Of a stretch of DNA of 32,000 nt, positions 3,572 to 31,687 are shown piece by piece (the stretch's first letter is position 1; the number at the start of each line of letters is the position of its first letter). Made by a program: the position numbers and the translations under genes. Below the pieces are notes generated by a model. That model ran no database searches, had not been told where the DNA came from, and was given only the letters and a program-made list of their open reading frames with translations. This stretch comes from Thermosulfurimonas dismutans (GTDB lineage: Bacteria > Desulfobacterota > Thermodesulfobacteria > Thermodesulfobacteriales > Thermodesulfobacteriaceae). The stretch lies in the NCBI RefSeq assembly GCF_001652585.1, contig NZ_LWLG01000013.1, positions 34,376 to 66,375 of the forward strand, in the 5' to 3' direction.

Positions 3572-3577
3572 CTACCC

Positions 3578-5405: not shown

Positions 5406-5407
5406 GA

Positions 5408-6205: not shown

Positions 6206-6209
6206 TATT

Positions 6210-9051: not shown

Positions 9052-9063
9052 GGAGGTTGCGGG

Positions 9064-9327
9064 ATGGCCCGCGTTACAGTTGAAGATTGTCTAGAAAAGG
9101 TTCCCAGCCGCTTTAGACTTATTCATTTAACGGTAGAGCGGGTAAGACAACTGCGCAAGGGGGCCAAACCCCTGGTAGAATGTGATAACCGCGAAATTGT
9201 GACCGCTCTCAGGGAAATTGCGGCTGGTAAGGTAACCTTCGAAAATATCAAAGAATTGGCCAAGGAAGCCGAAGACTTCTCCATTTCTGACCTTCTTGAA
9301 GGTAAAGGGCCCGGTAAAGAGTCGTGA
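9064..9327 (+). CDS. rpoZ: DNA-directed RNA polymerase subunit omega
   Basis: '[30 protein letters not shown]' is a typical RpoZ N-terminus; 87 aa. Confidence 0.85.
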
Positions 9328-11291: not shown

Positions 11292-11297
11292 CCTAAA

Positions 11298-12293: not shown

Positions 12294-12925
12294 ATCGCAA
12301 ATTATTCCAAAACGAAATCCGAAAAATTGTCCCCGAGCTTAACGAGACTCAACTAGAGAAGCTCTTCCTTTATGCCGAACTCCTGCAAGAGGTAGCCTAC
12401 GCCCTAGGCCTCAGCAATTTGTCTCGAGAAGCGGACATCCTCGAAAAACACCTCCTCGACAGCCTCATGCTACTTCCCCATCTACCGGAAGGTCCCTTCT
12501 GTGATCTTGGAAGTGGCGCCGGGCTTCCGGGAATACCCCTAAAGATCGTCCGCCCCGAAACCGAGGTCTATCTGGTAGACTCCCGCCGGAAGGCCGTGTC
12601 CTTTTTGGAGTACGCCGCAGCAAGACTAGGTCTCGAAAGATTGGAGATCCTAAAAGCCCGGGTCGAGGCCCCCGAGGTGCCCCGCGAATACTTCGCCGCT
12701 GTGGTCTCCCGAGCGGTGACCGCCCTCTCCGAACTCTGGGATTTGGCCTACCCCCTCCTGAGACCCGGAGGAAAACTTCTGGCCTTAAAGGGCCCGCGTG
12801 GAAGAGAAGAGGTAGAGGCCTTACAGGAAAGACATCCGAAGCTTCCCATCCGGAGTCATCCCTACGAGCTCCCTTGCGGAAGACCCGGAACGGTGGTGGA
12901 GGTGCTCAAATCGTCTCCCAGTTAA
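12290..12925 (+). CDS. rsmG: 16S rRNA (guanine527-N7)-methyltransferase RsmG/GidB
   Basis: SAM motif 'DLGSGAGLPGIPLKI'; typical size. ATGA overlap with the upstream gene. Confidence 0.85.
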   Translation: MNRKLFQNEIRKIVPELNETQLEKLFLYAELLQEVAYALGLSNLSREADILEKHLLDSLMLLPHLPEGPFCDLGSGAGLPGIPLKIVRPETEVYLVDSRRKAVSFLEYAAARLGLERLEILKARVEAPEVPREYFAAVVSRAVTALSELWDLAYPLLRPGGKLLALKGPRGREEVEALQERHPKLPIRSHPYELPCGRPGTVVEVLKSSPS

Positions 12926-13139
12926 GACAGTTGGGACAAACCCAAGTGATGGCGTTACAAGAAAAGTGCTTCTGATCCTGGGATAGACATCGCTGACAAA
13001 CCGTAAAACCGCACTTCCGGCAGCGCCAAACCAGGGGCATCTCCTGGCCGCAGAACTCACATTTCCCAGCCCCGTATTTAGTCCTTCTAAAGGCTCGCAT
13101 CTTTGCGCCTGGCTTTGAGTTTGGCATCGTGAGCCGCAA
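12906..13139 (-). CDS. Cys-rich small protein (multiple CxxC, zinc-ribbon-like), hypothetical
   Basis: 'CEFCGQ..RCRKCGFTVCQRC...CPNC'. An alternative ATG at 13100 would reduce the overlap with the upstream kinase gene. Confidence 0.5.
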   Translation of the reverse strand: MRLTMPNSKPGAKMRAFRRTKYGAGKCEFCGQEMPLVWRCRKCGFTVCQRCLSQDQKHFSCNAITWVCPNCLNWETI

Positions 13140-13839
13140 TCTTGGCGATCTTTTTTTCTAACTTAATAAGTCTTTTTTCCTCCGAAAGCCAGGGGTGATA
13201 ACGAAAATAGGCCTCCAGAAACGCTTTTTCAAACTCTCGGGTTCCCGGCCCTAGAATCTGCCTGGCAGAATAAAAAAGTTCGGCGAGGTCCTTAATGACC
13301 CAGTAGGGTTTGATTTTGCGGGCTCTACGCACTCGCTGGAGATCGATCATAAAGAGTCTTTTTCCGTCCCAAAACAGATGACAAAGATAGAAATCTTGGT
13401 GGGAAAACCCCAGGGCATGAAAACGGGCCGCGGTCTCCACCAGGGGCGGAAGGAGTTTGCGGAAGAGCTCCGGACTCTCTTTAAAGAGGTCCTCAAGACG
13501 TCTTCCGGGGACCTCGCGAAACAGGCTCAAGGCCCGATGACGCCTCAGGCCGCGCTCAAGGCCAAAGGCGACGGGCTCCGGCACATGAAAACCATGGGCA
13601 GAAAGTTCCCTGGCCGCCCACCATTCCCTCTCGGCTCCACTCTTGAGAAAGCCAAAGAGTGGAAATCGAAAATACCGCTTCAAAAAAAAGCGATCGTCTC
13701 CAAGCTCAAGTAGGGCTATCTCCCGATCCTTCTTGGATTTGAAGGGCTTGGTGGGAGCCTTCCAGAGAGCTTCAAAGGTGACCAATCCCTGACCTTTAAG
13801 TAATTCTTGCCAGCGCGGGCTGATCTCAAATATCGTCAT
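13087..13839 (-). CDS. Lipopolysaccharide kinase (Kdo/WaaP)-family protein
   Basis: Catalytic-loop-like 'SHQDFYLCHLFWD' resembles WaaP/RfaP 'HRDCYICHFLL'. 250 aa. 4-nt overlap with the radical SAM gene. Confidence 0.7.
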   Translation of the reverse strand: MTIFEISPRWQELLKGQGLVTFEALWKAPTKPFKSKKDREIALLELGDDRFFLKRYFRFPLFGFLKSGAEREWWAARELSAHGFHVPEPVAFGLERGLRRHRALSLFREVPGRRLEDLFKESPELFRKLLPPLVETAARFHALGFSHQDFYLCHLFWDGKRLFMIDLQRVRRARKIKPYWVIKDLAELFYSARQILGPGTREFEKAFLEAYFRYHPWLSEEKRLIKLEKKIAKIAAHDAKLKARRKDASL

Positions 13840-15134
13840 GCCGACAACTCCCGGACATATCTTTTGAGCTCCTCTATAGCCTCCCAGTCCGGACTTTTGA
13901 AGGCCGGAAAGACGGAGTTATTGTGAAAGATAGGGTCCTCGGAAAGAGGATATCGCGAAATCCTTTCGGTCTCCTCGAAAAGAGGTGTCCCCGGAATAGG
14001 GGAAAATTCCGCAAGTACGGGTCTGGCCCCGGCCTGAGCCACGAACTCCGCGGCCTTCTTTACCTCCGCAAGGGTTTGCCCCGGAAGACCGAAGAGGAGA
14101 TAGGCCCCTAACTCCCTGGCCGTAAAACCGGCCTCCCTTAAATAGGCCACCGCCTGCCCAAACTCCTCCTCGTTCACTTTACGATCGAGCCTCTGCCCCA
14201 CGGTCTCAAGTCCTAGCCGCAGGGTAACAAATCCGGACTGCTTGAGAAACCCCGCCACCTCTCGGTTGATGAACCGCGCATGCAGGGCATTGGGCGTATG
14301 GAAGCGGACTCTAATTCCGGCTGAAAGGACGCCCTCCAGGATGACTGCCAGATGGTTCTCAAAGTCAAGAAGAAGGGCATCGTCGTAAAAGGCAAAATCC
14401 ACTACCCCGTAATGCTCGTGCCAGTAAAGGATCTCAGAGACAACCTCCTCCGGAGACCGCCTCTCAAAATCCGGAAATAGTCTCGTCGAGGCACAATAGG
14501 GACACCGAAAGGGACAGCCCCTTCCAGTAAGAAGGACAACATAGGGTATTTGCCGCTGGAGATCAAAGATTGGAAAGGAATGGGAATTAGGCTCACCTGT
14601 AGGATCGCAAAGTTCAGAGATCCTCTTCAAGATCCTTTCCTCGGCGTGCTCGGTTATGATCTCAGCCCCGGGAAAGATCTCCCTGGCGTGTTCCGGGCAG
14701 AGGCGAGCGTAAACTCCTCCAAGAAGCACGGGAGTATCTGGGAAACGGCTCCTGAGCAGCCGGAAGGCCTCAAGGGTCCCAGGATACCAGTAGGTGAGCA
14801 GACAGGTGATGAGGATGACTTTCGGGGGTTTGAGACCGGCCACTTCTTTCTCGGCCAATTTTCTGGGAAGCCCGTAGCGGGCCAAACGCCGGGGCACGTC
14901 TTCGAAGAAGATCGGCTTGGGGACCTCCTCTCGCCAGAAATGGCCGGTACCATAGGCCCGGCGTTTCGGCTTTCGGGGAAGCTCGGGGTGGAAGGGATCC
15001 AGAAGATCCAGAAATTCTACTCGATACCCTTCTTTCCTGAGAAGACCACCAAGTCTTAAAAGCCCGTAGGGTCTCAGCCAGAAATCGTAGGCCGCAAAGT
15101 CATAGATCCAAGGATTGACTAACAGAACATCCAC
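13836..15134 (-). CDS. B12-binding-domain radical SAM protein
   Basis: 'GRGCPFRCPYCAS' (CxxxCxxC). The N-terminal 'VDVLLVNPW...' is a typical class-B rSAM start. Start set to GTG 15134 because codons upstream (to ATG 15200) merely translate a tRNA fragment. Confidence 0.85.
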   Translation of the reverse strand: MDVLLVNPWIYDFAAYDFWLRPYGLLRLGGLLRKEGYRVEFLDLLDPFHPELPRKPKRRAYGTGHFWREEVPKPIFFEDVPRRLARYGLPRKLAEKEVAGLKPPKVILITCLLTYWYPGTLEAFRLLRSRFPDTPVLLGGVYARLCPEHAREIFPGAEIITEHAEERILKRISELCDPTGEPNSHSFPIFDLQRQIPYVVLLTGRGCPFRCPYCASTRLFPDFERRSPEEVVSEILYWHEHYGVVDFAFYDDALLLDFENHLAVILEGVLSAGIRVRFHTPNALHARFINREVAGFLKQSGFVTLRLGLETVGQRLDRKVNEEEFGQAVAYLREAGFTARELGAYLLFGLPGQTLAEVKKAAEFVAQAGARPVLAEFSPIPGTPLFEETERISRYPLSEDPIFHNNSVFPAFKSPDWEAIEELKRYVRELSA

Positions 15135-15144
15135 AGGAAACCAC

Positions 15145-15188
15145 TGGCGGCCCCACCGGGACTCGAACCCGGGTCTCTGGCGTGAGAG
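15145..15188 (-). tRNA. Truncated tRNA-Glu(CUC)-like 3' fragment (anticodon loop to CCA); not an intact gene; putative att remnant at the island boundary
   Basis: The minus strand reads CTCTCAC-GCCAG-AGAC-CCGGG-TTCGAGT-CCCGG-TGGGGCC-G-CCA. These parts are the anticodon loop (CU-CUC-AC), 3' anticodon stem, 4-nt variable loop, perfect T-arm, 3' acceptor strand, discriminator G and CCA. No complementary CTGGC or GGCCCCA lies upstream. Confidence 0.8.
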
Positions 15189-15203
15189 TAGGATTCGCAT
15201 TTC

Positions 15204-16741: not shown

Positions 16742-18573
16742 TTAGCCGCTCGAAAGCCTCTGAGTAAGCCTTTTCCACCAGCGAAAGCCTTTCTTCTCAT
16801 CCTCCAGATCCAGAAAGTTCTTAAATCTTTGGGCGTCCAAGAGGACTACCCCTTTGGTTTCCACCACCACGCCCGAGGGAAGATAGTTTACCAGCGAATC
16901 CTTATCCGGCCGGGAATGTTCCAAGAAGGCCCGGGTGATATCAAAGTACTCCCGACCGTCAATTTTTATAGTCTTTGCAAACAGTTCCTGGTGGGCGTGG
17001 TAAAAGGTAAACCAGGCCCGGCGGGCTCGCTCCCGATAGTAAAGATCTACAAGCCTTTCCTCCGTAAACCACCTCGGCCGATCCAGATCCAATTCCTCAA
17101 AATACTCCAGAAAGATTTCCCTGGCAGGTTTTAAGAAGTCTTCGGGGAAAAAGATTTCTTTCTGCCGGAATCTTCGTTCGAGTCTGAAAACGAAATCTCG
17201 GAAGAGGTCCTCTTCAAGACGGTATTCCCGTTTTACTCTCTGAGGAAACGGGACGGAAAGTGGAAGATAGTAGATTCGGCGCATGACCTCCGGAGGGGCG
17301 TGGAAGTCCTTCTCGTTTCCGGTGGCCAGGAAACAGGCATGGGGGCCGGAGAAGGTGTTGGCCATCTCTTTGATGAACTGCACGCCTTCGTATGATCTTT
17401 CCGAAGTGGTGGTGAAGTACTGCCGTTTAACCTCGTCCACCAGGACGGGAAAGAGATTTCCGTTGGTAAGAAGAAGATAAATACCGCGCGAGTTGATTTT
17501 TCCGGCCGGGAATTTGGCCTTGGGAGTATAATGGTAATGAAGGCCGTGGTTTCCCAGAAGACGACTTATGGCACGCAGAAGAAAGGTCTTTCCGGAGCCG
17601 GCCGCCCCTGCGATATAAAGGAAGATGGGTACTTCCGCTAGATACTCTTCCCCCAGAAGGGAAGCCTCTTTGCGAATGAGCCACAGAAAGGGCGACATGA
17701 AGGCGTAAAGGACGGCCTCGAAGGCAATGCGGCTAGCCCGCTCTTCGCCGGTAAGCTCGGAGTAGGAGCTCAAAAACTCATTAAGTCCCTGAAAAACCGT
17801 CTGGAGCCTCTCCAGAGGAAGCTCCCTTCCCAGAGGCTCGCCATTTCTGAAAAGTCCTTCCTCACGCCATTGGAATCTAGGCCTATCGTCCTCGAATTCC
17901 CTGGTCTCCTGGACGGTTCGCTTGAGCACCCGGAAAAGGGCCTCTTTTTTCGCATAAACCTCTCTGGGGGAGATAAGGATGGCCCCGGATTCCGTGCGCT
18001 TGGTTATGACCCGAAAAACCTCAAGGAGCTTTCTTTGTTCGCGGACGTTTTCCTCTTTTTCTTTGATCTTCTTTTCCATCTCTTCCAGAGAGTCTTTTAA
18101 GTGAGCTTCCACAAGGAGGGTTTTCACCTCCCCGATACGGTCGGCAAAAAACTCCAGGGTTTCCTTGTCTTTGACCAATAAGGCTTCAGGGAGTTTCTTT
18201 TTCTTTTGGAGAAAATCTTTAGGGAATAGGGGACGAGAAGATTTCTTTAAATGTCTTAGTACCTTTTCAAAGAGGGCAAATTTGGACGGATTCTCTTCTT
18301 CATCAAAGACTTCGAGGATCTCCCATTGGCGTCCGCCAAGGGCTCTCTCGGTGAGGTTGGCGCTTCCCCAGATAAGCCTGCGCCCAGTCTCACCTTTTAA
18401 GAGAAAGATTTTGGCATGACTGGCTTCAAAGGGTACCAATACTTGGTAATCTCCTTTGGAGAGTTTTTCGAGAATTTGGGCGTTGGCCGAAACTTCTTCA
18501 AAGAGTCGGCGATTTTCCTCCGGTTCAAAAAAGGCCGCAAGTCCTCGCGCCGATTCCGGGAAACCTACTATGA
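16742..18573 (-). pseudogene. C-terminal 608 codons of an IS-split PLD-nuclease / P-loop NTPase fusion gene
   Basis: HKD-type motif 'HAKIFLLKGETGRRLIWGSANLT'; coiled-coil-like K/E-rich linker; Walker A 'IAGAAGSGKT'; Walker B 'FPVLVDEV'; 'FLATGNE'. The first ~33 codons of the listed ORF (18574-18673) are IS-derived. Confidence 0.85.
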
Positions 18574-19830
18574 GGGACTGTCCACCCGTTTGTGTAAATT
18601 TCATTATAGCCGGTCCTCGAAGAGAATTGCTATCTGGCCGTATATCTGAGGCCAGCCCTTGATCTGGGCCCATTTCCGCTCAAGCTCCATAGCTGCCATG
18701 TACAAGCACTTTAACAGGGATTCTTCCGTCGGAAATACCCGTCTTCCGGCCGTAGCCTTACGAAATTTACTATTTACGCTCTCTATAATATTTGTCGTGT
18801 ACATTACTCGCCTAATCTCCACAGGATACCTGAAAAAGGCTGTAAGAGCCTCCCAGTTCGCCTGCCAGCTCTTCACTACGTGAGGGTATTTACTCCCCCA
18901 TTTCTCCGAAAAAGCCTCCAGCTCCCTCTCCGCCGCCTCAAGCGTGGCCGCCCCATAGATCCTCTTGAGATCCCGAGCTATTTCACGTCTCTCTTTCCAA
19001 GCCACATACCTCAAGGAATTCCTGATCTGATGCACTATGCATCTCTGGATATCCGCCCTCGGGTAAACCGCCCCTATGGCCTTCTCAAGCCCAGAAAGCC
19101 CATCCACGCTGAAAATGAAAACATCCTTCACCCCTCGAGACTTTAGGTCGTTCAATACACCAAGCCAAAATCGGCTCGATTCTGTCCCGTTTATCCAAAA
19201 ACCTAAAATCTCCTTATAACCCTCAAGATCGAGTCCTATCGCCACATATACCGCCTTGTTCCTTACCTGCCCCTCCTCCCTGGCTTTATAGAAAATACAG
19301 TCTATCCAAATCAAAAAATACTTCTCCTTGAGCGGCCTCGAACGCCATTCCTCTATCTCCGGAAGTAGCCGATCCGTAATCTTGGAAATCAAAGAAGGAC
19401 TTACGTCAAAACCATACATCTCCGAAAGGATCTCCTGGATATCCCTGGTACTCATACCTTTGGCGTAAAGGGCTACAATCTGGTTTTCGATCTCATCCAG
19501 CATAGTCTGGCGCTTCCTGACTATTTGAGGCTCAAATTCGCCCTTCCGATCCCTGGGAACCTTGATCTCCAGGGCCCCGGAAGAGGTCTTAATCGTCTTG
19601 GAACTGTAGCCGTTCCGGGAATTGTCGGTATCCGAGCGCTCGTATCTCCCGTAGCCCAAAAACTCCTCTAGTTCGGCCTCAAGGGCTTCCCTCAAAGTAC
19701 GCCGGACAAGTTCCTTAATGGTGGCCTGCACTTCTTCGGGCTGAGGTGCCTTCTTGGCTCTTGCCATAGTGTCCACCCTCCTTTTGTAATTTGCTTATTC
19801 TAAAATCTCCACAGTTGGGTGGACACTCCC
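18574..19830 (-). mobile_element. IS256-family insertion sequence, copy 1 (1257 bp), intact
   Basis: Imperfect terminal IRs: GGGACTGTCCACCCGTTTGTGTAAATTTCA (18574-18603) versus the complement of 19801-19830, GGGAGTGTCCACCCAACTGTGGAGATTTTA (23/30 match). Perfect 8-bp TSD TACTATGA at 18566-18573 and 19831-19838. Confidence 0.95.
18604..19776 (-). CDS. IS256/Mutator-family transposase (390 aa)
   Basis: 'NGYSSKTIKTSSGALEIKVPRDRKGEF', 'VDGLSGLEKAI', 'IQRCIVHQIRNS', 'YTTNIIESVNSKFRK'. Confidence 0.95.
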   Translation of the reverse strand: MDTMARAKKAPQPEEVQATIKELVRRTLREALEAELEEFLGYGRYERSDTDNSRNGYSSKTIKTSSGALEIKVPRDRKGEFEPQIVRKRQTMLDEIENQIVALYAKGMSTRDIQEILSEMYGFDVSPSLISKITDRLLPEIEEWRSRPLKEKYFLIWIDCIFYKAREEGQVRNKAVYVAIGLDLEGYKEILGFWINGTESSRFWLGVLNDLKSRGVKDVFIFSVDGLSGLEKAIGAVYPRADIQRCIVHQIRNSLRYVAWKERREIARDLKRIYGAATLEAAERELEAFSEKWGSKYPHVVKSWQANWEALTAFFRYPVEIRRVMYTTNIIESVNSKFRKATAGRRVFPTEESLLKCLYMAAMELERKWAQIKGWPQIYGQIAILFEDRL

Positions 19831-20058
19831 TACTATGAAACACAATTTTTCGAAACCAAGATTCAGGAAGAACTCCAAGGCCTTTCTTATGGAGGCCGAA
19901 TAGGTGAGCACCAGGGCCTCCTGATAGCCTGCCACTAAACTCTGAGGGTCTCCAGAGAACTCCCGCCCTTTATATAAGATCTTGAGACGGCTCTCCGAAG
20001 TGTTTTCAAAAAGCCCCGCCATCCTTTTCATCTTGAGGTCTTTTTGTTGTTTTGACAA
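19831..20058 (-). pseudogene. N-terminal 76 codons of the IS-split PLD-nuclease / P-loop NTPase gene
   Basis: Reads '...LVLTYSASIRKALEFFLNLGFEKLCFIV' up to the TSD. It joins in frame to 18565 once the IS and one TSD copy are removed. The start is ambiguous (TTG 20058, ATG 20031 or ATG 20022). Confidence 0.8.
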
Positions 20059-20079
20059 GGCGTCGCTTGGAGTTATATT
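20052..20079 (+). promoter_or_regulatory. Near-consensus sigma-70-type promoter for the plus-strand operon
   Basis: TTGACA (20052-20057), 16-nt spacer, TATATT (20074-20079), 24 nt upstream of ATG 20103. Confidence 0.4.
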
Positions 20080-20102: not shown

Positions 20103-20855
20103 ATGGCACTTGACGAAAAGATTCTCTATCGCATTTTTTCCGAGCTTTTTCCGGATGAGACGGTTGAAAATTGGGCCTTTCTCGGAGACGGCTTTACGCC
20201 TTTTGCGGACTGGAGGCGAGCCGCCGGCCCCAAAAGAGAGCTTTGCTTTCTTATCAAAACCTGCGATCCTCGAAAGTTTATCGTAAAAGCCGAGGATATT
20301 CTCGGTTCCCATTGCCGCATAGCCAAGCTCGATGAGGCCATGGGGGTCTATTCTTTCTGGGTAGGCTGGTGCGAGACGCCGATCTTTGCGGTCTCCTTTT
20401 TCGTGCCGTTTTCGGACCCGTGGCGGAAAAAGCTCTTTGAGAGGATTTTTTACGGAGATAAGGAAAAATTTCACTATTGCAAACTATTCAATCATGGGGT
20501 GCGTCTCCTTCCGGACGAAGACTTTGGGGTTCTTTCCGTGGCCCTCGGAAGACAGGTAAGACGCCCACTTGATGGATTTTACGCTCTGGTGCTGGCCTCA
20601 AATGACCGAGCCACGGCCGAGAGAATCGAGGAGCTTGCGGGGATTCTTAAAATTTTAGAAAAGTTGAAAATCTTGGAAAAGAAGGCTTCTTTATTCAATT
20701 TAGCCAAAAACAGAATGGAAAGTTACAAGGATCGTGGTATCAATCGGTTTTTTTATTTTTGGGACTATGAGGAGCGCTGGTTACGGAGCGCGAAAGCCGA
20801 AGAAGTAAGAATGTTAAAGCGTATGAAAAGCTCCCTGCTTTTCAAAGACGACTAG
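20103..20855 (+). CDS. Hypothetical protein (250 aa), first gene of the operon
   Basis: ATG 20103 chosen because the TTG at 20052 coincides with the predicted -35 box. No recognisable motif. 5-nt gap to the next gene. Confidence 0.6.
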   Translation: MALDEKILYRIFSELFPDETVENWAFLGDGFTPFADWRRAAGPKRELCFLIKTCDPRKFIVKAEDILGSHCRIAKLDEAMGVYSFWVGWCETPIFAVSFFVPFSDPWRKKLFERIFYGDKEKFHYCKLFNHGVRLLPDEDFGVLSVALGRQVRRPLDGFYALVLASNDRATAERIEELAGILKILEKLKILEKKASLFNLAKNRMESYKDRGINRFFYFWDYEERWLRSAKAEEVRMLKRMKSSLLFKDD

Positions 20856-20860
20856 GAGTT

Positions 20861-21583
20861 ATGCTAGCCTTTGCCGCGGACATTCACGGCGAGTGGCGCA
20901 GGCTTTACGAGAACCTCCCTCAGGAGGTGGAAGCGGTTTTCATCTGCGGGGACGCTGAAATGGTTCGCTCTGAGGAGGATTTGGCGCTTATACCGGCTCC
21001 CAAGAAGCATCTAAAGCTCGGAGATTTTCATTTCTTTTGGGAGCGGGGCGAGGTTCCCGTTCCGACCTATGTCCTTCTTGGAAACCACGAGCCGTACCTG
21101 TGGCTCTGGGAGCACGAAAAAAACGGACCGACGGAGGTCATTAAGAACCTATGGGTGCTGGCACGGTCGGGAGTTATTGAGCTTTGCGGGCTAAAGATTG
21201 CTTATCTTGGCAGGGTTTTTGCCCCTACTACCTATTTTGAAGGGCGAGTATGGAATCCAGAGAAAGACAAGAGGTCCAAAAAGTCGAAGCTTGCGAGCCG
21301 TTTTACACCGGAAGATGTAGAAAGACTCATTTCAGAGGCGGCTAAAGTGGAAGATGTCGATGTACTCGCTCTCCACGAAAATCCGAATTATTGCAAGGAC
21401 GCACGAGGAAGAGAAGTCTATCGGAATATTGTTGAGCTTGTGAGACCGAAACTCATCATTTGCGGACATATGCATCGTCTTTTACTGGAAACTTTTTCTG
21501 GTGTTCCTATTTTTGGGCTTCCATATGGGATTCCAGTCACTTGGCAAAAAATCGAGTGTTCGATGGAAAACACAAATCTTTGA
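20861..21583 (+). CDS. Calcineurin-fold metallophosphoesterase, Dbr1 (debranching enzyme)-like, paralog 1
   Basis: Motifs 'ADIHGE', 'CGDAE', 'LGNHEP', 'ALHENP', 'CGHMH'. The block 'GDAEMVRSEEDLALIPAPKKHLKLGDFHFFW' resembles the Dbr1 region '[31 protein letters not shown]' (from memory). Confidence 0.7.
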   Translation: MLAFAADIHGEWRRLYENLPQEVEAVFICGDAEMVRSEEDLALIPAPKKHLKLGDFHFFWERGEVPVPTYVLLGNHEPYLWLWEHEKNGPTEVIKNLWVLARSGVIELCGLKIAYLGRVFAPTTYFEGRVWNPEKDKRSKKSKLASRFTPEDVERLISEAAKVEDVDVLALHENPNYCKDARGREVYRNIVELVRPKLIICGHMHRLLLETFSGVPIFGLPYGIPVTWQKIECSMENTNL

Positions 21584-21635
21584 GCGCTAATTCGACCTCG
21601 ATGTTTCGTCCAAGCCGATAAGTTTTCAATAGGCT

Positions 21636-22505
21636 ATGCATTTCGCAGTCATCGGTGATGTTCACGGGCGATTTGAGTTGCTGGCAAGGGTGCTTGCGGT
21701 CCTGCGCGACCGCTACGGGGTAGAACTCGCCTTTCAGGTGGGCGACTTGGCCTTTCTATCCTCAAGCGACCCCAAGTACCTCAAGGCCCTGAAGATGGCC
21801 GGGCCGCAAACTCCGCCCCTCATTTACGACGTTTTTGATGATGAAGTCCAAGCCATAAGGTTCCTCCACGGCGACATCGAGCTTCCCGTCCCGGTCTACT
21901 TCGTAGGCGGAAATCACGAGGACTGGCCGTACTTAGACTTCGTGGAAGAGAAGATGCGCGAGCAGGGGATAGCACCGCCCTACGAGATTGCGCCGAACCT
22001 CTTTTTCCTGGGAAAGGCGAGCGTGGTGGAGGTGTCCGAAATGCGGGTCGTCACCCTTTCAGGGATCTACGACCGCCTCAAGTGGGAGCTCTGCGTGACC
22101 TCACCGCGGAAGCTCTACTACCACAACCAAGAAGACGAAGAGGCGCTTCTCTTCCATGCGCCCGGGGCGGACCTTTTCATCGCGCACGAGTGGCCGGTGA
22201 AGCTCGCTTCGGGCGCAACCTGGGAGGAGGCCATTTACGCAGCCGTCGGCTCTCCCACGGTGGACCGGCTCATCCACCACTTTCGGCCCGCGCTTTCGTT
22301 CCACGGGCACATGCACCGCTACGCGCAGGGCATTCGCGGCCCCATGGGAGAGCGGCCCACGAAGTGGGTGGGCCTGGACATGCTCATCGTGGACCACTAC
22401 CACAGAGTCCGCAATGTGGCCCTTTGCGAGTTCGAGGGGCCGGGTGCGGTGAGGCTCCTTTTTACCGCGGAGGCGAGGAAACTCTTAAAGGACGCTTCCG
22501 CTTAG
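21636..22505 (+). CDS. Calcineurin-fold metallophosphoesterase, Dbr1 (debranching enzyme)-like, paralog 2
   Basis: Motifs 'IGDVHGR', 'VGDLAF', 'GGNHED', 'IAHEWP', 'HGHMH'. 'APNLFFLGKASVV...LSGIY' and 'GSPTVDRLIHHFRPALSFHGHMH' parallel recalled human DBR1 blocks. The gene is clearly more GC-rich than its neighbour. Confidence 0.7.
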   Translation: MHFAVIGDVHGRFELLARVLAVLRDRYGVELAFQVGDLAFLSSSDPKYLKALKMAGPQTPPLIYDVFDDEVQAIRFLHGDIELPVPVYFVGGNHEDWPYLDFVEEKMREQGIAPPYEIAPNLFFLGKASVVEVSEMRVVTLSGIYDRLKWELCVTSPRKLYYHNQEDEEALLFHAPGADLFIAHEWPVKLASGATWEEAIYAAVGSPTVDRLIHHFRPALSFHGHMHRYAQGIRGPMGERPTKWVGLDMLIVDHYHRVRNVALCEFEGPGAVRLLFTAEARKLLKDASA

Positions 22506-22514
22506 GAGAGCACG

Positions 22515-22886
22515 ATGTCAACCCGAGACCTTTTGCGGTTTGCAAGAGAAGTGGAAAAGAGCCGTCCCCGACTGAGGCGGGTCCTCAAGGTGGAGGAGCT
22601 TTATACCGAGTACCTCACGCGTCTTCCCCGCCTTCCGGTGGTGCGGGCCGGTTTCGAGGTCCTCAACGAATTTAATCTCCGCATCGTTTCCCCGAAAGCG
22701 CTTATTGCGGTGCTCCTCTGTCTTCCCGAGCGCTCAATGGACCTCTCTGCTTTCGTGCGGGTGCTTCCCGAAGTCTTTCCAGAGGATCTTTCCAGAGCCC
22801 TGCAAGTCCTTTCGGGGGACCCCGGGGTGCTTGCAGTGGTTCTCTACGGTTCAAGGGCTCGAGGAGATGCTCGGCCGGATTCGGAC
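22515..22886 (+). pseudogene. NTase-domain protein (~100-aa N-terminal extension plus a minimal nucleotidyltransferase motif), 3'-truncated by an IS
   Basis: 'VLAVVLYGSRARGDARPDSD' is the MNT/Pol-beta-type GS-x9-D-x-D motif. It is cut directly after DSD by the IS inverted repeat starting at 22887/22888. The listed ORF tail 'WGGIQFCVSGE*' is IS sequence. Confidence 0.75.
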
Positions 22887-22887
22887 T

Positions 22888-24237
22888 GGGGTGGTATTCA
22901 ATTTTGTGTGTCTGGAGAGTAAATAAGGAAGGCCCCTGGTGAAGGGCCTTCCTAAAAGAAAAGGGGAAAAGAAGAAACTCATCAAGGAGGTAACCGCTAT
23001 GAAACAGAATAATCCCTTCACCGAAGAATTTCTAGAACAACTTAAGGACTGGGAAAACTTTGTCCCCAGAGAGTTCCTCTCCTGGCTCTTTAAAAACCTG
23101 GGCCTGGCACACCGCGCCATCCACCTCAAGAAACATCCCCATGACAAGGGAAACGGCTTCTACGAAAGAACACTACAGATAGGATACAGATAGGAAGTCT
23201 TCCTTTTCCCGTAGAGGTGGCCCGTACACGGTATGAAAAGTTCCGGCCCTTTTTCCTCCCTCCAGGACACCTCCGGTATCTCCCCGAAGATTACCTCCAC
23301 CTGACCTCCTCCCTTCTCCTGGGCTCCCGATCCATCGATAGCGCTTCCCGGGCCCTAAAAAATATGGGCCTCCCCATAAATCAAGATTACCTGGAAGAAG
23401 TGATCGAAGAGTTCGTGACCTATCTCGAGGACCTCAACTCCTGCCCGCTGCCTTCAGATTTGGCCGCCCTCATCCTGGATGCCAAACATATCCACCAGAA
23501 GCTCAAAGACGGACAGAAGGTCATGGGACATACCACCTATGTGGCCCTGGGCCTTACCCTGGATGGGCAGAAGAAGATCCTAGGCCTCTACACCTTCGAG
23601 GGCTCAGAGAGCCTCGAGGGCTGGAAGAAGACCCTGGAGAAGCTTCTTCAGCGGGGGCTGAGGGGGATCCTTATCGTGATCCATGATGACTTCCCTGGAC
23701 TCCTGGGCCTCACCTCAAGCCTTTTTCCTCAGGCGGATATTCAACTTTGTACGGTGCACCTTTGCCGGAATGCAAGAAAACACCTCTCCCAGGAGAACTA
23801 TCGCACCTTTAAGAGCTACTTCAAAAGCATCAAAGCAAGCCTCAGCTATGAGGAAGGCTTGAGGCTTTTTGATTCTCTTCTCAAGGAGCTTCCACAGGAG
23901 AACACCTTTGTGAAGCTTCTTGCAAAGAAGAAAGAGCACTATCTGGCCTTTTTGAAGTATCCGGAGGAGGTGAGACCGCTGTTTTCCTCGACCAATCTGG
24001 CCGAGGGGATCAACCGGAAGATAGAAGAGGCGGAGAGGGCCTGTGGGGGTTATTTCCATTCGGAACGGGACCGGGACTTCAGGTATGGGGTGCTAGCTAA
24101 GGAATTGCTAGAGGGCAGATGGAGGAGGGTCAACTGGAAATACCAGCGGGTGGCTCACCTCCTGAGATATCTTTTCGAGGAAAGGTTTAAAAATGAGGAC
24201 CTCTTGGTCTAGACACAGAAAACTTGACAAGCGCCCC
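22888..24237 (+). mobile_element. IS256/Mutator-family insertion sequence, copy 2 (divergent type, ~1350 bp), transposase inactivated
   Basis: IRs GGGGTGGTATTCAATTTTGTGTGTCT (22888-22913) versus the complement of 24212-24237, GGGGCGCTTGTCAAGTTTTCTGTGTCT. No matching TSD in the flanks. Internal 10-bp hairpin 22926-22935/22944-22953. Confidence 0.8.
22999..24212 (+). pseudogene. IS256/Mutator-family transposase disrupted by an 11-bp tandem duplication
   Basis: ATG 22999 follows AAGGAGG. 'NGFYERTLQIG' runs into a stop at 23191-23193, and the continuation '...SLPFPVEVARTRYEKFRPFF...' is in another frame. TACAGATAGGA occurs twice in tandem (23174-23184, 23185-23195); deleting one copy fuses the frames. 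Confidence 0.85.
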
Positions 24238-24465: not shown

Positions 24466-24669
24466 ATGAAGATCTACGAAACGGTAGTCACGCCGGATCG
24501 AAAAATAGTCGTGGAAAATATTTCTTTGATGCCGGGAGAAAAGGTCAAGTTGCTGATACTCAGGGAAAAGTCTGGCCGGAAGGGATATCCGCTCAGGGGA
24601 AGAAGAGTAGAATATATTGATCCTTTCGAAAGCGTGGCGGAAGATGAATGGGAAGCCCTAAAATGGTAG
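24466..24669 (+). CDS. vapB: VapB-type antitoxin (AF2212/DUF104-like)
   Basis: 67 aa, 'MKIYETVV...GEKVKLLILRE', C-terminal '..DPFESVAEDEWEAL'. ATGGTAG overlap with the PIN gene. Confidence 0.65.
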   Translation: MKIYETVVTPDRKIVVENISLMPGEKVKLLILREKSGRKGYPLRGRRVEYIDPFESVAEDEWEALKW

Positions 24670-24995
24670 TTCTTGACACCCATGTCTGGGTCTGGTGGGT
24701 TCATTCTCCAGAAAAATTAACCTCCAAACAAATTAGTGTCATTCAGGCTAATGAAAACGATTTAATAGGAATCTCGGCCATTTCCTGCTGGGAGATAGCG
24801 AAGTTGGTGGAACGGGGACGGTTGCGGCTTCCCTGCACCCTGGAGGAATGGTTCGATCTGGCTTTTTCCTATCCGGGGATAGAGATAATCCCTCTGACCC
24901 CTGAAATCGCCATAGAATCGACCAGGCTACCTGGAAACTTTCACAGAGATCCGGCGGATCAGCTGATTGTGGCCACAGCTCGGGTCCTGAATTGT
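24663..24995 (+). pseudogene. vapC: PIN-domain toxin VapC, 3'-truncated at a junction with IS1634-like sequence
   Basis: 'VVLDTHVWVWW', 'CWEIAKL', 'RDPADQLIVATARVLNCPLV'. From about 24996 the ORF reads the antisense of a transposase fragment, so the final acidic PIN residue region is missing. Confidence 0.75.
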
Positions 24996-25229
24996 CCGCT
25001 TGTCCAGCGCCCCTTCCTTAAGCTTTTCCAGACGCCCCAGGTTAGCCACGATCCTCTGGCGCACTTTTCCACTAACCCGCTTGCCCTCCACGATATAGAG
25101 ATAGGTTTTTGGAGGTGGAGACGGTAGAACAGAGGCAGGGAAGGGGAAAAAAGGGGGCATTTTAGGGGTATTTTGGGCCGAAAATACTCACTTCAGATTC
25201 ACCAGCCCTTTCCGACTGTCAAACTTGAG
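24960..25229. repeat. Left arm of a ~269-bp inverted repeat (36 nt of vapC plus the IS1634-like 5' end, transposase codons 1 to ~55, UTR and IS terminus)
   Basis: 24960-25198 equals the reverse complement of 30069-30307 with 2 mismatches in 239 nt (my alignment). The outer 31 nt are related but diverged. The minus-strand ORF 'MPPFFPFPASVLPSPPPKTYLYIVEGKRVSGKVRQRIVANLGRLEKLKEGALDK' is a typical IS1634-group N-terminus. Confidence 0.9.
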
Positions 25230-25510: not shown

Positions 25511-26536
25511 ATGAAAAGAGCACTGATAACTGGTATAAGAGGTCAAGATGGAGCTTACTTAGCAAAACTGCTATTAGAAAAAGGATATGAAGTTTACGGT
25601 GCAGACAGGAGGAGTGGCGATTCCAGTAATTGGCGTTTAAAAGAACTTGGTATAGAAAAATACGTGAAGGTAATTTATATGGATCTTCTAGAGCTAACGA
25701 ACATACTCAGAGTAATTAAGGAAGTTCAACCTGACGAGGTATATAATCTTGCAGCACAAAGTTTTGTACAGGCTTCTTTTGAACAGCCTATACTAACGGC
25801 AGAGGTAGATGCTATTGGAGTTCTTAGATTGTTAGAAGCTCTAAGATTTTATAAATCAGATGCAAAATTTTATCAAGCATCAACGAGCGAGATGTTTGGA
25901 AAGGTTCAAGAAGTTCCTCAAAAAGAAACAACACCTTTCTACCCAAGGAGTCCTTATGCTGTAGCCAAGCTCTTTGGACACTGGATTACAGTTAACTACA
26001 GAGAATCTTATAACATGTTTGCATGCTCTGGTATTTTGTTTAATCACGAATCCCCTTTAAGAGGGTTAGAATTTGTAACAAGAAAAATTACTTACACTTT
26101 AGCACGGATTAAATATGGATTAGAAGATAAGCTTATTCTTGGAAATCTTGATGCTAAAAGAGATTGGGGTTATGCTCCCGAATATGTAGAAGTTATGTGG
26201 TTAATGCTTCAACAAGATACGCCGGATGATTATGTGATAGCAACGGGTGAAACTCATACAGTCAGAGAGTTTGTAGAAAAGGCGGCAGAAATTGCGGGAT
26301 TTCAAATAGAATGGGAAGGAGAAGGGATAAATACGAAAGGTATAGATAAGAAAACTGGAAAAATTATAATAGAGGTTTCTCCTAAGTTTTATAGACCTGC
26401 TGAAGTAGATATTTTAATAGGAGATTATTCTAAGGCAAAAACTAAGCTTGGCTGGAAACCTAAAATTAAATTCGAAGAGCTTGTTAGAATCATGATGGAG
26501 GCTGACCTTAAACGAATTGAAAAAGCGAAACAATAG
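25511..26536 (+). CDS. gmd: GDP-mannose 4,6-dehydratase
   Basis: '[25 protein letters not shown]', 'STSEMFG', 'SPYAVAKL' (YxxxK). GAGGAGG RBS. Markedly AT-rich. Confidence 0.92.
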
Positions 26537-26642
26537 ATTAATCTCAACTTATGAGAGTAAATGAAAATTGCAGTAATAGCTAATTGTTAAGCTAAACTAT
26601 TAGAGTGTTAAAACTTTTTGATTTTGAATCTAAATAACTTTT

Positions 26643-26651
26643 GGGGGGGGG
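26643..26651 (+). repeat. Homopolymeric G9 tract in the manC ribosome-binding region
   Basis: Nine consecutive G at 26643-26651, 6 nt upstream of ATG 26658. Confidence 0.95.
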
Positions 26652-26657
26652 CGTTCT

Positions 26658-28073
26658 ATGTGTCAAGTAAATTTTTTAATACTTGCGGGAGGTTCTGGAA
26701 CAAGACTTTGGCCGCTATCCAGGAAAAATTTTCCAAAACAGTTTTTAAAACTACCCCTCCCAAATTCAACTCAACCGGAAAGCTTTTTCCAGAAAACCTT
26801 GAAGCGTATAGCTTTATATCCTGATGACGCTAATTTTTACATTATTACCAATGAAAAGTATAAATTTTATATTCTAAATCAAATAAAAGAAATTTGGGAT
26901 AATCCTGACAATTCTTTCGACACGGTGTTGGAGCCGGCATCCAGAAACACTGCTCCTGCTATTGCCCTTGGAGTAAGATATGCCCTTGAAAAAGGGGCCT
27001 CTTTAGAAGATGTGTTCGTTGTAACTCCCTCAGACCATTTGATAGAGCCCAAAGAGAAGTTTGTAGAATATCTTGAACGCGCGGTAGAAATAGCAGAAAA
27101 AGGTCATATCGTTACCTTCGGTATAAAACCGACTAAACCCGAAACCGGATACGGTTATATAAAGGCAAATGAGCAATCTTTTCAGGATGGCTATTTTAAG
27201 GTTGAAAGATTCGTAGAGAAGCCGGATCTGGAAACCGCCAGGAGGTATCTTGAAGAAGGAAATTATTTCTGGAATTCTGGAATGTTCGCCTTTTCTGGTA
27301 AAACCTTTATTGAAGAACTTAAAACCTATTTACCCGAAGCATCTATAATATTTGAGAAACCCATGGAAGAGGTTTTTCAAAGATTCTCCGATCTTCCTGA
27401 TATTTCTATAGATTATGCCGTGATGGAAAAGACGAACAAGGCGGTAGTGCTTCCTTTGTCTTTATATTGGTCCGATATAGGGTCCTGGGAAAGCTTGTTC
27501 GAAGTTTTCGAAAAAGACGAGAAGGGCAACTTGTTGCTTGGCAATGTGCTCGATCTTGATGTGAGGAATTCCTTTGTTTTTGGAGATAGAAGACTTATTG
27601 CCCTTTTAGGGGTGAAAGATCTGGTGGTGATAGAAACCGAGGATGCTCTTTTGATTACCAGAAAGGGAGAGTCTCAAAGAGTAAGAGAGGTCGTGAAAGA
27701 GCTTCTGAAAAAAGGGAGATCCGAGGCCGAAGAACACCTTACTGTTTATAGGCCCTGGGGAAGTTACACGGTTCTTGAAGAAGGCCCCCGATACAAAATC
27801 AAACGAATCGTTGTAAACCCCGGAGAGAAATTGAGTTTACAGCTTCATCATCACCGTTCCGAACACTGGATCGTTGTAAGAGGAACCGCTAAAGTGAGAA
27901 TAGGTGATAAAGAAATGTTTGTCCATGAAAATGAATCCGTATATGTGCCTAAGTCCACACTTCATCGTTTAGAAAATCCCGGAAAAATTCCTCTGGAGAT
28001 TATAGAAGTCCAAAATGGAGAATATTTAGAGGAAGACGATATTGTACGGATGGATGATATATATGGCAGATAG
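26658..28073 (+). CDS. manC: Bifunctional mannose-1-phosphate guanylyltransferase / mannose-6-phosphate isomerase (type II PMI-GMP)
   Basis: 'ILAGGSGTRLWPLSR'; C-terminal cupin 'GEKLSLQLHHHRSEHWIVVRGTAKV'; 471 aa. Confidence 0.9.
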   Translation: MCQVNFLILAGGSGTRLWPLSRKNFPKQFLKLPLPNSTQPESFFQKTLKRIALYPDDANFYIITNEKYKFYILNQIKEIWDNPDNSFDTVLEPASRNTAPAIALGVRYALEKGASLEDVFVVTPSDHLIEPKEKFVEYLERAVEIAEKGHIVTFGIKPTKPETGYGYIKANEQSFQDGYFKVERFVEKPDLETARRYLEEGNYFWNSGMFAFSGKTFIEELKTYLPEASIIFEKPMEEVFQRFSDLPDISIDYAVMEKTNKAVVLPLSLYWSDIGSWESLFEVFEKDEKGNLLLGNVLDLDVRNSFVFGDRRLIALLGVKDLVVIETEDALLITRKGESQRVREVVKELLKKGRSEAEEHLTVYRPWGSYTVLEEGPRYKIKRIVVNPGEKLSLQLHHHRSEHWIVVRGTAKVRIGDKEMFVHENESVYVPKSTLHRLENPGKIPLEIIEVQNGEYLEEDDIVRMDDIYGR

Positions 28074-30307: not shown

Positions 30308-31530
30308 CATTAGCTCAGACTTAATCTGACAGGTAGGCCTTCCCAAAGAGGGTGGTCTAGGCTACCCTCCAGAGAGAGCTCCACCCAAAACTCAAAATAA
30401 GGAGGAATAGCCATGACCACCCAAGAGAAGCTTATCAAGAACAAGCTAGGTTTGCTAGAGTTAGCGGCGTATTTAAAGAATGTTTCCGAGGCTTGCCGGG
30501 TGATGGGTTTCAGCCGAGACACCTTCTACCGGATCAAGAAGGCTTACGAGGAAGGCGGAATAGAGGCCCTTTTTGAGAAGAGCCGCCGGAAACCGAATCT
30601 CAAGAACCGGGTTTCGGAAGAGGTAGAGCGGGCAGTGGTGGAGCTGGCTTTGGAGGATCCCTCTTTGGGACAGAAGAGGGTAAGCGACGAATTGAGGAAG
30701 CGAGGGATATTTGTATCTCCGGCCGGGGTAAGGAGCATCTGGCTTAGGCACGGGCTGGAGCGTTTTGAGAAGAGGCTCAGGGCCTTAGAGGAGAGGGTAG
30801 CGCGGACGGGGGAGATTCTTACGGAGAGGCAGCTTCGGGCGTTGGAGAAGGCGCAGGAGGAGAAGATAGCCCAGGAGGAAATCGAGACCGAGCACGTGGG
30901 ATATCTGGGGGCGCAAGACACCTATTATGTGGGCACTATCAAAGGGATAGGCCGGATCTACCAGCAGACTTTTATAGACACCTATTCAAAAGTGGCTTTT
31001 GCGAAGCTTTACACCAGCAAGCATCCTATCAACAGCGCAGATTTACTGAACGATCGGGTGATACCGTTTTTTGAGGAGCATGGACTCTCGGTATTGAGGA
31101 TATTAACAGATCGGGGGACGGAATTTTGCGGACGTATTGACCGGCACGAATACGAGCTCTTTTTGGCTTTGAACGACATAGAGCACACCAAAACCAAAGC
31201 CAAGAACCCTCAGACCAATGGAATATGCGAACGGTTCCACCGGACGATCAAAGAGGAGTTTTACTCCATAGCGTTGAGGAGGAAGCTTTATCGGAGTTTG
31301 GAGGAGCTTCAGGAGGACCTGGATTTGTGGATAGAGAGGTACAACCGGCAGAGGCCGCATCAGGGGAAGTACTGTGAAGGCAAGACGCCGATGGAGACGT
31401 TTTTGGGAAATGTGCCCTTGGCAAAGGAAAAGATGCATTCTAATGTGGAGGCGGGATTTGGGTTCTGACCGAGCCTGACAGGTGGAGACTCTGGAGGGGC
31501 CAACTGTCAGATCAAGTCTAAACTTTTACA
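30306..31530 (+). mobile_element. IS481-family insertion sequence (~1.2 kb)
   Basis: IRs TGCATTAGCTCAGACTTAATCTGACAG (30306-30332) versus the complement of 31504-31530, TGTAAAAGTTTAGACTTGATCTGACAG (20/27 match; core AGACTT.ATCTGACAG). No TSD recognisable. Confidence 0.75.
30413..31468 (+). CDS. IS481-family transposase (HTH + rve DDE integrase core)
   Basis: N-terminal HTH 'VSEACRVMGFSRDTFYRIKKAYEEGG'; 'LTDRGTEF'; 'NPQTNGICERFHRTIKEEF'. AAGGAGG RBS. Confidence 0.9.
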   Translation: MTTQEKLIKNKLGLLELAAYLKNVSEACRVMGFSRDTFYRIKKAYEEGGIEALFEKSRRKPNLKNRVSEEVERAVVELALEDPSLGQKRVSDELRKRGIFVSPAGVRSIWLRHGLERFEKRLRALEERVARTGEILTERQLRALEKAQEEKIAQEEIETEHVGYLGAQDTYYVGTIKGIGRIYQQTFIDTYSKVAFAKLYTSKHPINSADLLNDRVIPFFEEHGLSVLRILTDRGTEFCGRIDRHEYELFLALNDIEHTKTKAKNPQTNGICERFHRTIKEEFYSIALRRKLYRSLEELQEDLDLWIERYNRQRPHQGKYCEGKTPMETFLGNVPLAKEKMHSNVEAGFGF

Positions 31531-31687
31531 CATTATAGCCTATCCTCAAATAAAATTGAGAGCTGGGCGTAAATTGAAGGCCAATCCTTAATAGGGACTG
31601 TCCACCCTTCTGTGTAAATCACATTATAGCCTATCCTCAAATAAAATCGAGAGCTGGGCGTAAATTGAAGGCCAATCCTTAATAGGG
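31531..31687. repeat. 91-bp-period direct duplication across the terminus of IS256-family copy 3
   Basis: The 66-nt segment CATTATAGCCTATCCTCAAATAAAAT(T/C)GAGAGCTGGGCGTAAATTGAAGGCCAATCCTTAATAGGG occurs at 31531-31596 and 31622-31687 (1 mismatch). The two copies are separated by the IR core ACTGTCCACCCTTCTGTGTAAATCA. Confidence 0.9.

Follow-up and report, generated by a model that had tools for sequence, protein, structure and literature searches.

Dbr1 hydrolyses 2'-5' phosphodiester bonds at RNA branch points, and its Tyr64 stacks on the branch-point adenine. Two relatives of this enzyme were analysed in a 32,000-nucleotide stretch of DNA from Thermosulfurimonas dismutans, a heat-loving vent bacterium (this whole stretch is the window; positions are counted from its first letter). 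The adjacent genes MPE1 (20861..21583, + strand, 240 amino acids (aa); 100% identical to WP_068671198/OAQ20301) and MPE2 (21636..22505, + strand, 289 aa; 100% identical to WP_068671200/OAQ20302) encode metallophosphoesterases (MPEs). Neither of them qualifies as a bona fide Dbr1; the best description is that of members of a hitherto uncharacterised prokaryotic branch within the Dbr1/CWF19L1 clade, made up of short Asp-type proteins that lack the C-terminal domain of Dbr1.

Passages of two papers (PMC9202583, PMC10470207) describe Dbr1 as the only known enzyme that cuts the lariat 2'-5' bond, and a review of Dbr1 treats the enzyme purely as eukaryotic. Its hallmarks are an invariant Cys14 in the alpha pocket, a 28-aa lariat-recognition loop with invariant Arg158 (an insertion of roughly that length, residues 130-158) and a C-terminal domain (PMC4176325). 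Cys14, loop and C-terminal domain are each needed for debranching by Entamoeba Dbr1 in yeast, and the mutants C14A and C14S show no activity in vivo (PMC4176325). A second member of the same MPE subclade is the N-terminal domain of CWF19L1/yeast Drn1 (8RO1, 8RO2 chain L1). Drn1/CWF19L1 has a pseudo-MPE domain without catalytic residues and, in addition, C-terminal CwfJ domains (PMC4105757). In contrast to this protein, MPE1 and MPE2 lack CwfJ domains and have their catalytic residues complete; unlike Dbr1 with its spliceosomal setting, they are bacterial and belong to a mobile cassette. The eukaryotic Dbr1/Drn1 pair and MPE1/MPE2 have in common that two paralogs of the clade are found together.

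A Dbr1 label on these proteins is not new and is loosely present in databases already: UniProt names both "RNA lariat debranching enzyme". Coding genes of T. dismutans were annotated with RAST followed by manual correction (PMC4911364), and the RAST annotation is taken to be the origin of the label. Literature searches on prokaryotic Dbr1-like enzymes returned no study, only boilerplate mentions of the superfamily.

Relationship of MPE1 and MPE2 to Dbr1

Both ORFs exist at the coordinates given in the first-pass annotation, and every motif of the MPE superfamily was located in both proteins, as that annotation had read from the translations. MPE1 carries D7-x-H9-G, G30-D31, G74-N75-H76-E77, H172 and G202-H203-M-H205, and MPE2 carries D8-x-H10-G, G36-D37, G92-N93-H94-E95, H184 and G224-H225-M-H227. 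These residues are invariant over 104 aligned clade members. Pfam and NCBIfam recognised only a generic MPE domain (PF00149 at 6e-14 for MPE1 and 8e-13 for MPE2), and neither protein reached the cut-offs of the NCBIfam models yfcE (15 bits, cut-off 56) and acc_ester (21 bits, cut-off 148).

Four other lines of search each led to Dbr1. Using phmmer against all PDB sequences (E <= 10), Entamoeba Dbr1 was retrieved at 7e-12 for MPE1 and 3e-8 for MPE2, and no MPE structure other than Entamoeba Dbr1 and CWF19L1 was matched. Family profiles reached Dbr1 at 3.6e-22 (MPE1) and 1.7e-13 (MPE2), with no other MPE below 0.01. In the PDB, the two proteins have their best match, and almost their only relative, in Dbr1 (E. 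histolytica 4PEF-4PEI and 5K71-5K78; yeast and human DBR1). AF2 models (mean pLDDT 89.5 for MPE1 and 85.5 for MPE2) were compared with known folds by Foldseek. For MPE1, Dbr1 ranked first (4e-13, TMq 0.73-0.75) and CWF19L1 next (8e-9); for MPE2, CWF19L1 (1.1e-14) and Dbr1 (4e-14) were the top two. The TM-score normalised to Dbr1 was 0.52-0.56 for the two models. Generic MPEs (aq_1956, GpdQ, LpxH, Rv0805, Mre11/SbcD) began at 2e-6 for MPE1 and 6e-8 for MPE2 with TMq <= 0.55, and trailed Dbr1/CWF19L1 by 3-7 orders of magnitude and ~0.2 TM units. The YfcE, Icc/CpdA/Rv0805, SbcD/Mre11, LpxH and GpdQ families stood at rank 11 or lower (TMq 0.38-0.55).

An exhaustive, filter-free hmmsearch with the MPE1-family profile against 1.84 billion cluster representatives gave just 1611 matches, 703 of them at E <= 1e-10, true Dbr1s included. 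Of the best 146 of the 1611 matches, 82 were short and of the 'GDxHG' kind and 32 were long and of the 'GCxHG' kind. Since the matches comprise short Asp-type proteins and true Dbr1s, the profile picks up the Dbr1 clade and little else. PF05011, the Dbr1 C-terminal domain, was present in 28 of the 104 clade members scanned; long Cys-type proteins, counted separately, number 30. The affinity to Dbr1 is real and specific, as had been claimed against a merely generic MPE relationship: phmmer, family profile and Foldseek all placed only Dbr1/CWF19L1 at the top.

Similarity extends well beyond the metal-binding residues. Dbr1 and the two proteins share the MPE catalytic set apart from the first-motif Cys, a 'VRxExDL...PxKY...GDF' block, SGIY, HDWP, GHMH and an insertion at the site of the lariat-recognition loop. 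In Entamoeba numbering, the clade signatures are R50, D54, P61, K63, Y64, F70, SGIY, HDWP and the loop-sized insertion. MPE1 keeps R36, D40, P47, K49, H50 (at the Dbr1 Tyr64 position) and F56. Of 63 short proteins, 43 have Tyr at the Tyr64 position, 9 have His (the residue of MPE1) and 6 have Phe. The block parallels with human DBR1 that the first-pass annotation had drawn hold when the comparison is made with eukaryotic Dbr1 proteins carrying PF05011 (P0019-P0023) instead of human DBR1 itself, for example in 'CGDFQATRNEQDLDSMAVPDKYRQM', 'SHDWP' and the 'GSP...L.' block. The inserted loop measures 33 aa in MPE1 and 23 aa in MPE2, compared with 29 aa in Entamoeba Dbr1 and a median of 31 in both eukaryotic proteins and short prokaryotic relatives. 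In MPE1 the loop is strongly basic (7 Lys/Arg) and contains the family-invariant residues W131, K143, A145 and F148.

The two proteins also depart from Dbr1 proper. Where Dbr1 has Cys14, MPE1 (D7), MPE2 (D8) and 63/63 short relatives have Asp, and 30/30 long eukaryote-type proteins have Cys. At the Arg158 position, MPE1 has Thr and MPE2 Asn, and Arg is found in 11/63 short proteins. PF05011 was absent from both proteins in a Pfam scan, and they stop 35-60 residues past the last metal motif. The Dbr1-like identity proposed at first thus stands as a specific affinity to the clade, and fails for Dbr1 in the strict sense on Cys14, Arg158 and the C-terminal domain.

A mosaic cassette

MPE1 is typical of its host in composition, with a whole-gene GC content of 0.490 and a third-position GC content (GC3) of 0.502, compared with a genome GC of 50.1% (PMC4911364). 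MPE2 reaches 0.607 and 0.776. Its GC3 is the highest of all 27 window ORFs measured, with z = +4.2 relative to 14 housekeeping genes (MPE1: z = -0.6). The step lies at ~21600-21700, that is, in the spacer between the genes (21584..21635, + strand, 52 nt) and the start of MPE2; the window as a whole is patchy, with GC from 0.33 to 0.63. A sharp difference between the two genes had been postulated from hand counts of single lines, and both these counts (26/60 at 21421-21480 and 39/60 at 22261-22320) and the difference itself were reproduced by computation.

The two proteins are 25% identical. In a neighbour-joining tree MPE1 grouped with P0027, P0067 and the Denitrovibrio type, and MPE2 with P0007 on a long branch near a clade of plasmid-like contigs. 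Exclusive grouping of MPE1 and MPE2 occurred in 1/100 bootstraps, and a recent tandem duplication was rejected on the grounds of this value and the low identity.

MPE1 and MPE2 are the second and third genes of a four-gene cassette on the + strand. A sigma-70-like promoter (20052..20079, + strand; TTGACA, 16 nt, TATATT; 11/12 matches) precedes it, and the 'TTG start' given at 20052 in the ORF list is the -35 hexamer of this promoter. The first gene (20103..20855, + strand, 250 aa) is a lineage-specific orphan whose start is likely the ATG at 20103. Its product had no match in Pfam, NCBIfam, PADLOC, PHROGs or PDB, and one homologous cluster was found among 5.8 billion (P0043, 86% identity). The fourth gene (22515..22922, + strand) is the 5' remnant of an MNT-type nucleotidyltransferase (PF01909, PF18765, NCBIfam MntA). 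Gaps between the four genes are 5, 52 and 9 nt, and they appear to be co-transcribed from the one promoter, judging by the promoter match, this spacing and the intact cassette of L004 and L007.

In the window, the nucleotidyltransferase is cut off by an IS256-like element. About 131 of 349 codons are left, homology ends just past the 'GSRARGDARPDSDW' motif, and the remaining portion was not found anywhere in the window. Because of this truncation the cassette may no longer function as a unit. Intact cassettes are present on metagenome contigs L004 and L007, where a MazE-PIN pair follows the nucleotidyltransferase. On L007, the nucleotidyltransferase and MPE1 both appear frameshifted, which may be due to assembly errors. 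The intact nucleotidyltransferase of L004 has 349 aa, with an N-terminal extension and a 170-aa C-terminal half without family assignment. It matched PF01909 (6e-9), MntA (3e-9; 37 bits, below the cut-off of 60) and HalB (3.5e-6, below cut-off). The C-terminal half gave no family or PDB match, including no HEPN family, and no Rx4-6H motif was seen in it. The MNT motif is present in the enzyme; type VII MntA/HepT toxin-antitoxin systems combine an MNT-type enzyme and a HEPN RNase with Rx4-6H.

Divergence was measured between the window and the sister cassette on L004, with which DNA homology starts at 20035. The orphan gene has a synonymous divergence (dS) of 0.17 and a ratio of nonsynonymous to synonymous divergence (dN/dS) of 0.59. 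The corresponding values are 0.10 and 0.17 for MPE1, 0.63 and 0.14 for MPE2, and 1.38 and 0.26 for the 5' part of the nucleotidyltransferase, which is 53% identical to its L004 counterpart at the amino acid level. Both MPE1 and MPE2 are clearly under purifying selection (dN/dS about 0.15). Nucleotide identity is 96-100% at 20400-21700 and 77-87% from there to 22300; a stretch of 100 nt at 99% comes next, and past 22444 the identity breaks down. The profile hence breaks at ~21700 and 22444, and the first break, at or just after the spacer, coincides with the GC step. The cassette is a recombination mosaic. Its two enzymes are of different origins, as the first-pass annotation had argued from composition; besides the low identity, the separate subclades and the bootstrap value, this is seen in the jump of dS from 0.10 to 0.63.

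The L004 cassette has the same GC step (0.498 -> 0.599), so the step is older than the split of the two cassettes, and an origin as a local accident of the T. dismutans genome was rejected. Thermosulfurimonas strain F29 is given as 58% GC in a passage of its description (PMC9676032), and MPE2 orthologs on the GC-rich contigs L022 and L024 (76-77% identical to MPE2) match their surroundings in GC. The MPE2 allele was therefore probably imported from a GC-richer lineage.

Possible function and competing explanations

The reading that we prefer, with a probability of roughly 55%, is that MPE1 and MPE2 are competent binuclear phosphodiesterases of an Asp-type branch of the Dbr1 clade, distant paralogs in a mobile, reshuffled cassette, for which we infer a class of substrates and a role in genetic conflict. 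The clade membership, the complete catalytic residues, the purifying selection, the layout of the operon, its mosaicism and its place in an island are results of the analysis. In the mechanism envisaged, the two-metal centre (Asp/His/Asp/Asn/His/His/His ligands) would cleave a phosphodiester bond adjoining a nucleotide, and the histidine of GNHE would serve as general acid. The base of this nucleotide could be sandwiched by the motif-I His and the Tyr or His at the Dbr1 Tyr64 position in the 'PxKY' block, and the basic loop that replaces the lariat-recognition loop may grip single-stranded nucleic acid. RNA would be a likely substrate, or else some other nucleic acid or a nucleotidyl adduct in which the linkage is unusual; small metabolites and nucleic acid in bulk would be unlikely. 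Specificity for 2'-5' bonds is possible. The setting would be a mobile-element conflict such as defence or counter-defence, with MPE1 and MPE2 acting as effectors or erasers. Counted in favour of such a setting were the IS256 elements, the PIN modules and a PLD/P-loop gene near the cassette, the surroundings of relatives on L001, L003, L007, L016, L018/L019 and L024 (all described below), and a weak match to PADLOC PDC-S10. The latter was nearly full-length for MPE1 but of low score (1.8e-6, 25 bits) and negligible for MPE2 (0.041); PDC-S10 itself is a candidate defence gene for which we know of no mechanism.

Several observations weigh against this reading. With Asp at the Cys14 position, Arg158 replaced and PF05011 absent, the two proteins lack three determinants of Dbr1 specificity. 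In addition, the segment around Dbr1 Asp205 is absent from MPE1, and segment 38-80 of MPE2 is rearranged, with most clade signatures of 40-80 replaced; this 40-80 segment is also the low-confidence part of the AF2 model. The cassette is damaged by the truncation of the nucleotidyltransferase. No close-range relatives were found in IMG/VR viral contigs (none for MPE1, and for MPE2 only 20-25% identical enzymes). Some members of the family have ordinary surroundings (Blastocatellia L015, L012, haloarchaeal megaplasmids), and no partner gene was conserved over the wider family in the neighbourhoods examined; a housekeeping role is possible for these two reasons. Finally, what the prokaryotic branch acts on is purely our assignment.

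That the two proteins are true debranching enzymes, equivalents of Dbr1 that cut 2'-5' bonds of group II lariats or multicopy single-stranded DNA (msDNA), is considered unlikely. It would agree with the specific homology in sequence and fold, with the preserved base-stacking pair (motif-I His and Tyr/His at the Tyr64 position), with an insertion comparable in size to the lariat-recognition loop, and with Dbr1 being, in the passages cited above, the only enzyme described for this bond. It is at odds with the exchange of Cys for Asp, the missing C-terminal domain and the unconserved Arg158; Cys14, the lariat-recognition loop and the C-terminal domain are each needed in Entamoeba Dbr1 (PMC4176325). 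No reverse transcriptase or cGAS/OAS-type enzyme was called near any homolog examined. In Rfam scans the window gave no family above threshold, and the ~136 kb of DNA surrounding 12 homologs gave only a transfer-messenger RNA (tmRNA) and two tRNAs; group II intron or retron RNA was accordingly not detected in the window and the 12 related loci, with the limit that Rfam covers retron RNAs poorly and is a weak test for them. A link to introns or retrons was rejected on this result, and the substrates put forward in the first-pass annotation (group II lariats, retron msDNA and 2'-5' signals) found no support in context. Somewhat less probable again is a function in the degradation of nucleotide signals or the reversal of nucleotidylation, with the MPEs and the MNT-type nucleotidyltransferase as eraser and writer. 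The coupling of both enzymes to the nucleotidyltransferase in the cassette and the purifying selection acting on both in the same operon speak for such a pair. However, the nucleotidyltransferase is confined to the Thermosulfurimonas-type cassette and is not part of the wider family, it diverges much faster than the enzymes by both amino acid identity and dS, it has been lost in the window with both enzymes intact, and no cGAS/OAS-type synthase or known signal-binding effector lies nearby.

Two further explanations are very improbable. A decaying remnant without current function, inactivated by the IS256-like element, might be suspected from the nucleotidyltransferase truncated at ~codon 131, from IS elements on both sides, from the apparent frameshifts on L007 and from the relaxed dN/dS of 0.59 in the orphan gene. 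But both enzyme ORFs are full length with all catalytic residues and dN/dS of 0.14-0.17, neither enzyme needs the nucleotidyltransferase, since either is found alone or in other company elsewhere, and the frameshifts may lie in the assembly. The generic Pfam and NCBIfam models (PF00149; weak yfcE and acc_ester) would suit ordinary YfcE-, Icc/CpdA- or SbcD-like MPEs whose likeness to Dbr1 is limited to superfamily motifs. Yet PDB sequence searches brought up no generic MPE, with single proteins not even at E = 10, generic structures fell clearly behind, the few profile matches in 1.84 billion representatives were short Asp-type proteins and true Dbr1s, and similarity reaches beyond the metal-binding motifs; the generic reading was rejected on these sequence, fold and profile searches.

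A broader proposal is unlikely: that short Asp-type Dbr1-like proteins of bacteria and archaea are genuine 2'-5' phosphodiesterases on mobile elements and defence islands and the stock from which eukaryotic Dbr1 arose. If true, they would represent the missing prokaryotic debranching activity, processing or destroying group II lariats, msDNA or 2'-5'-linked signals, and the tandem MPE1/MPE2 might act like the eukaryotic Dbr1/Drn1 pair. Prokaryotes do hold a distinct and fairly large branch of the Dbr1 enzyme clade, with members that tend toward islands, plasmids and ATPase-adjacent positions, and the locus makes prokaryotic debranching-type activity a directly testable question. Cleavage of 2'-5' bonds by any member would provide a handle on the turnover of bacterial lariats, msDNA or 2'-5' signals as well as thermostable debranching tools, and would bear on the origin of the eukaryotic enzyme. 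Cleavage of another kind would reveal how far the specificity of Dbr1 depends on the features missing from these proteins, namely the Cys, the C-terminal domain and the arginine of the loop.

Surroundings in the window and in relatives

A profile scan with the MPE1-family alignment returned 1 genome locus (a Denitrovibrio metagenome-assembled genome (MAG)) and 8 metagenome loci; the scan is not exhaustive, since T. dismutans itself was not returned. MPE1 and MPE2 are adjacent on the metagenome contigs L004, L005 and L007 too, and on L024 with their order reversed, which makes the pairing a recurrent one. This recurrence and the rarity of the clade (1611 of 1.84 billion representatives) speak against chance. 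On L024 (282-3645) a 519-aa ATPase_2/AAA_16 gene is followed after 5 nt by the MPE2 ortholog and, after 560 nt, by the beginning of an MPE1 homolog, in which similarity covers 65 aa (68% identity) and stops ~130 nt before the contig end; all of this is ~60% GC. Pairing is not obligatory, with either enzyme alone or in other company elsewhere. On L001 and L002 a lone MPE1 homolog is the first gene after an integrase fragment and lies beside the tmRNA gene. This tmRNA-adjacent island (L001 6571-16729, tmRNA at 6571-6928; also L002), in a host of ~30% GC, has, besides a gene for an AAA ATPase, an ORF of >1665 aa that combines RNA polymerase beta and beta-prime domains (Rpb2_6/7, Rpb1_2/5). On L012 an MPE1 homolog follows a tRNA gene, on L003 a lone MPE2 homolog is situated in a Uma2/SNF2/SMC island, and on L022 the MPE2 homolog is preceded by a different orphan gene.

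Genes of a subfamily of ~255-aa Dbr1-like proteins have a conserved ATPase gene (AAA, PF00004) as their next downstream neighbour (L016 6001-8584, L018 6001-8137) and may form a distinct two-gene module with it. Contigs of this subfamily carry ParA, with TrwC relaxase on L018/L019 and OLD-TOPRIM and RES genes on L016; it is also found in Ferrimicrobium MAGs.

Both proteins matched the phage MPE family phrog_1649, although weakly (1.5e-9 for MPE1 and 6.4e-13 for MPE2). Strong members of phrog_1649 (1e-24 to 1e-30) adjoin Dbr1-like genes on L006 and L007 and differ from MPE1/MPE2 in motif style (DGNHE, GHWH). L006 (7303-11516), the Denitrovibrio sp. MAG, has five MPE genes in a row: one Dbr1-like, three phrog_1649 and one NinI-like, the last of the Ser/Thr phosphatase type. 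Near this row are large ORFs which, by inspection, we take to be relaxase-like and a WYL-type regulator, together with a presumed cytosine-methylase-like gene. L007 has an additional phrog_1649 gene, and a neighbouring pair of large genes there is presumably McrBC-like, again by inspection only. Among viral proteins, the best structural matches reached TMq 0.62; short proteins of phages that bear the label 'RNA lariat debranching enzyme' (e.g. A0A8S5RWB7) count, like phrog_1649, among the nearest known counterparts. From phage and plasmid records came a single Rhodococcus phage gene and four genes of haloarchaeal megaplasmids, with uninformative surroundings, and no close relative of MPE1 or MPE2 turned up among the phage records.

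Longer Asp-type Dbr1-like proteins of 409-433 aa were found in metagenomes (P0071, P0117, P0119, P0140, P0171 and P0187). At the C-terminus they are extended by ~190 aa without family assignment, for which the matches were weak and TPR- or AimR-like. P0140 comes from a Nanoarchaeota MAG, and so does P0068, a shorter relative of 268 aa. The long proteins and two shorter relatives grouped in 96/100 bootstraps. A position of these Nanoarchaeota-type proteins as sister to eukaryotic Dbr1 appeared in the first neighbour-joining tree only (13/100 bootstraps) and is not claimed.

In the window, positions 1-15200 hold housekeeping genes, and the cassette lies beyond them in a variable IS/toxin-antitoxin island. 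To its left, an intact IS256-family transposase (18604..19776, - strand; Transposase_mut 9e-125) adjoins a gene for a 643-aa protein with PLD-like nuclease and P-loop ATPase domains (16742..18673, - strand; PLDc_2, AAA_16; weak PADLOC ZacB match, 3e-6). An 87-aa ORF (19795-20058, - strand) may be the N-terminus of the latter gene, split by the IS256 element, and would be divergent from the cassette promoter. On the right, the remnant of an IS256/Mutator-family transposase (22939..24212, + strand) occupies two frames (22939-23193 and 23217-24212; Transposase_mut 3e-39); tblastn with the intact IS256 transposase matched it at 24% aa identity, as a distant, frameshifted copy. It is followed by a toxin-antitoxin-like pair (24466..25127, + strand) of a small ORF without family match and a PIN protein (PIN 8e-14), at the relative place where L004 and L007 have their different MazE-PIN pair. 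An rve-type IS transposase gene (30413-31468) and a third IS256 copy (31536-32000, 85% aa identity to the 18604-19776 copy), cut by the window end, lie farther downstream.

Between these elements, 25511-28073 is a block of low GC (0.36-0.40, GC3 down to 0.25). It includes a mannose-1-phosphate guanylyltransferase/isomerase gene and, presumably, a gene for a protein like GDP-mannose 4,6-dehydratase, as we read one of the translations. The sugar-nucleotide set is of lipopolysaccharide (LPS)/O-antigen appearance, and the block gives the impression of a second segment gained by horizontal transfer, one that serves the synthesis of LPS or O-antigen.

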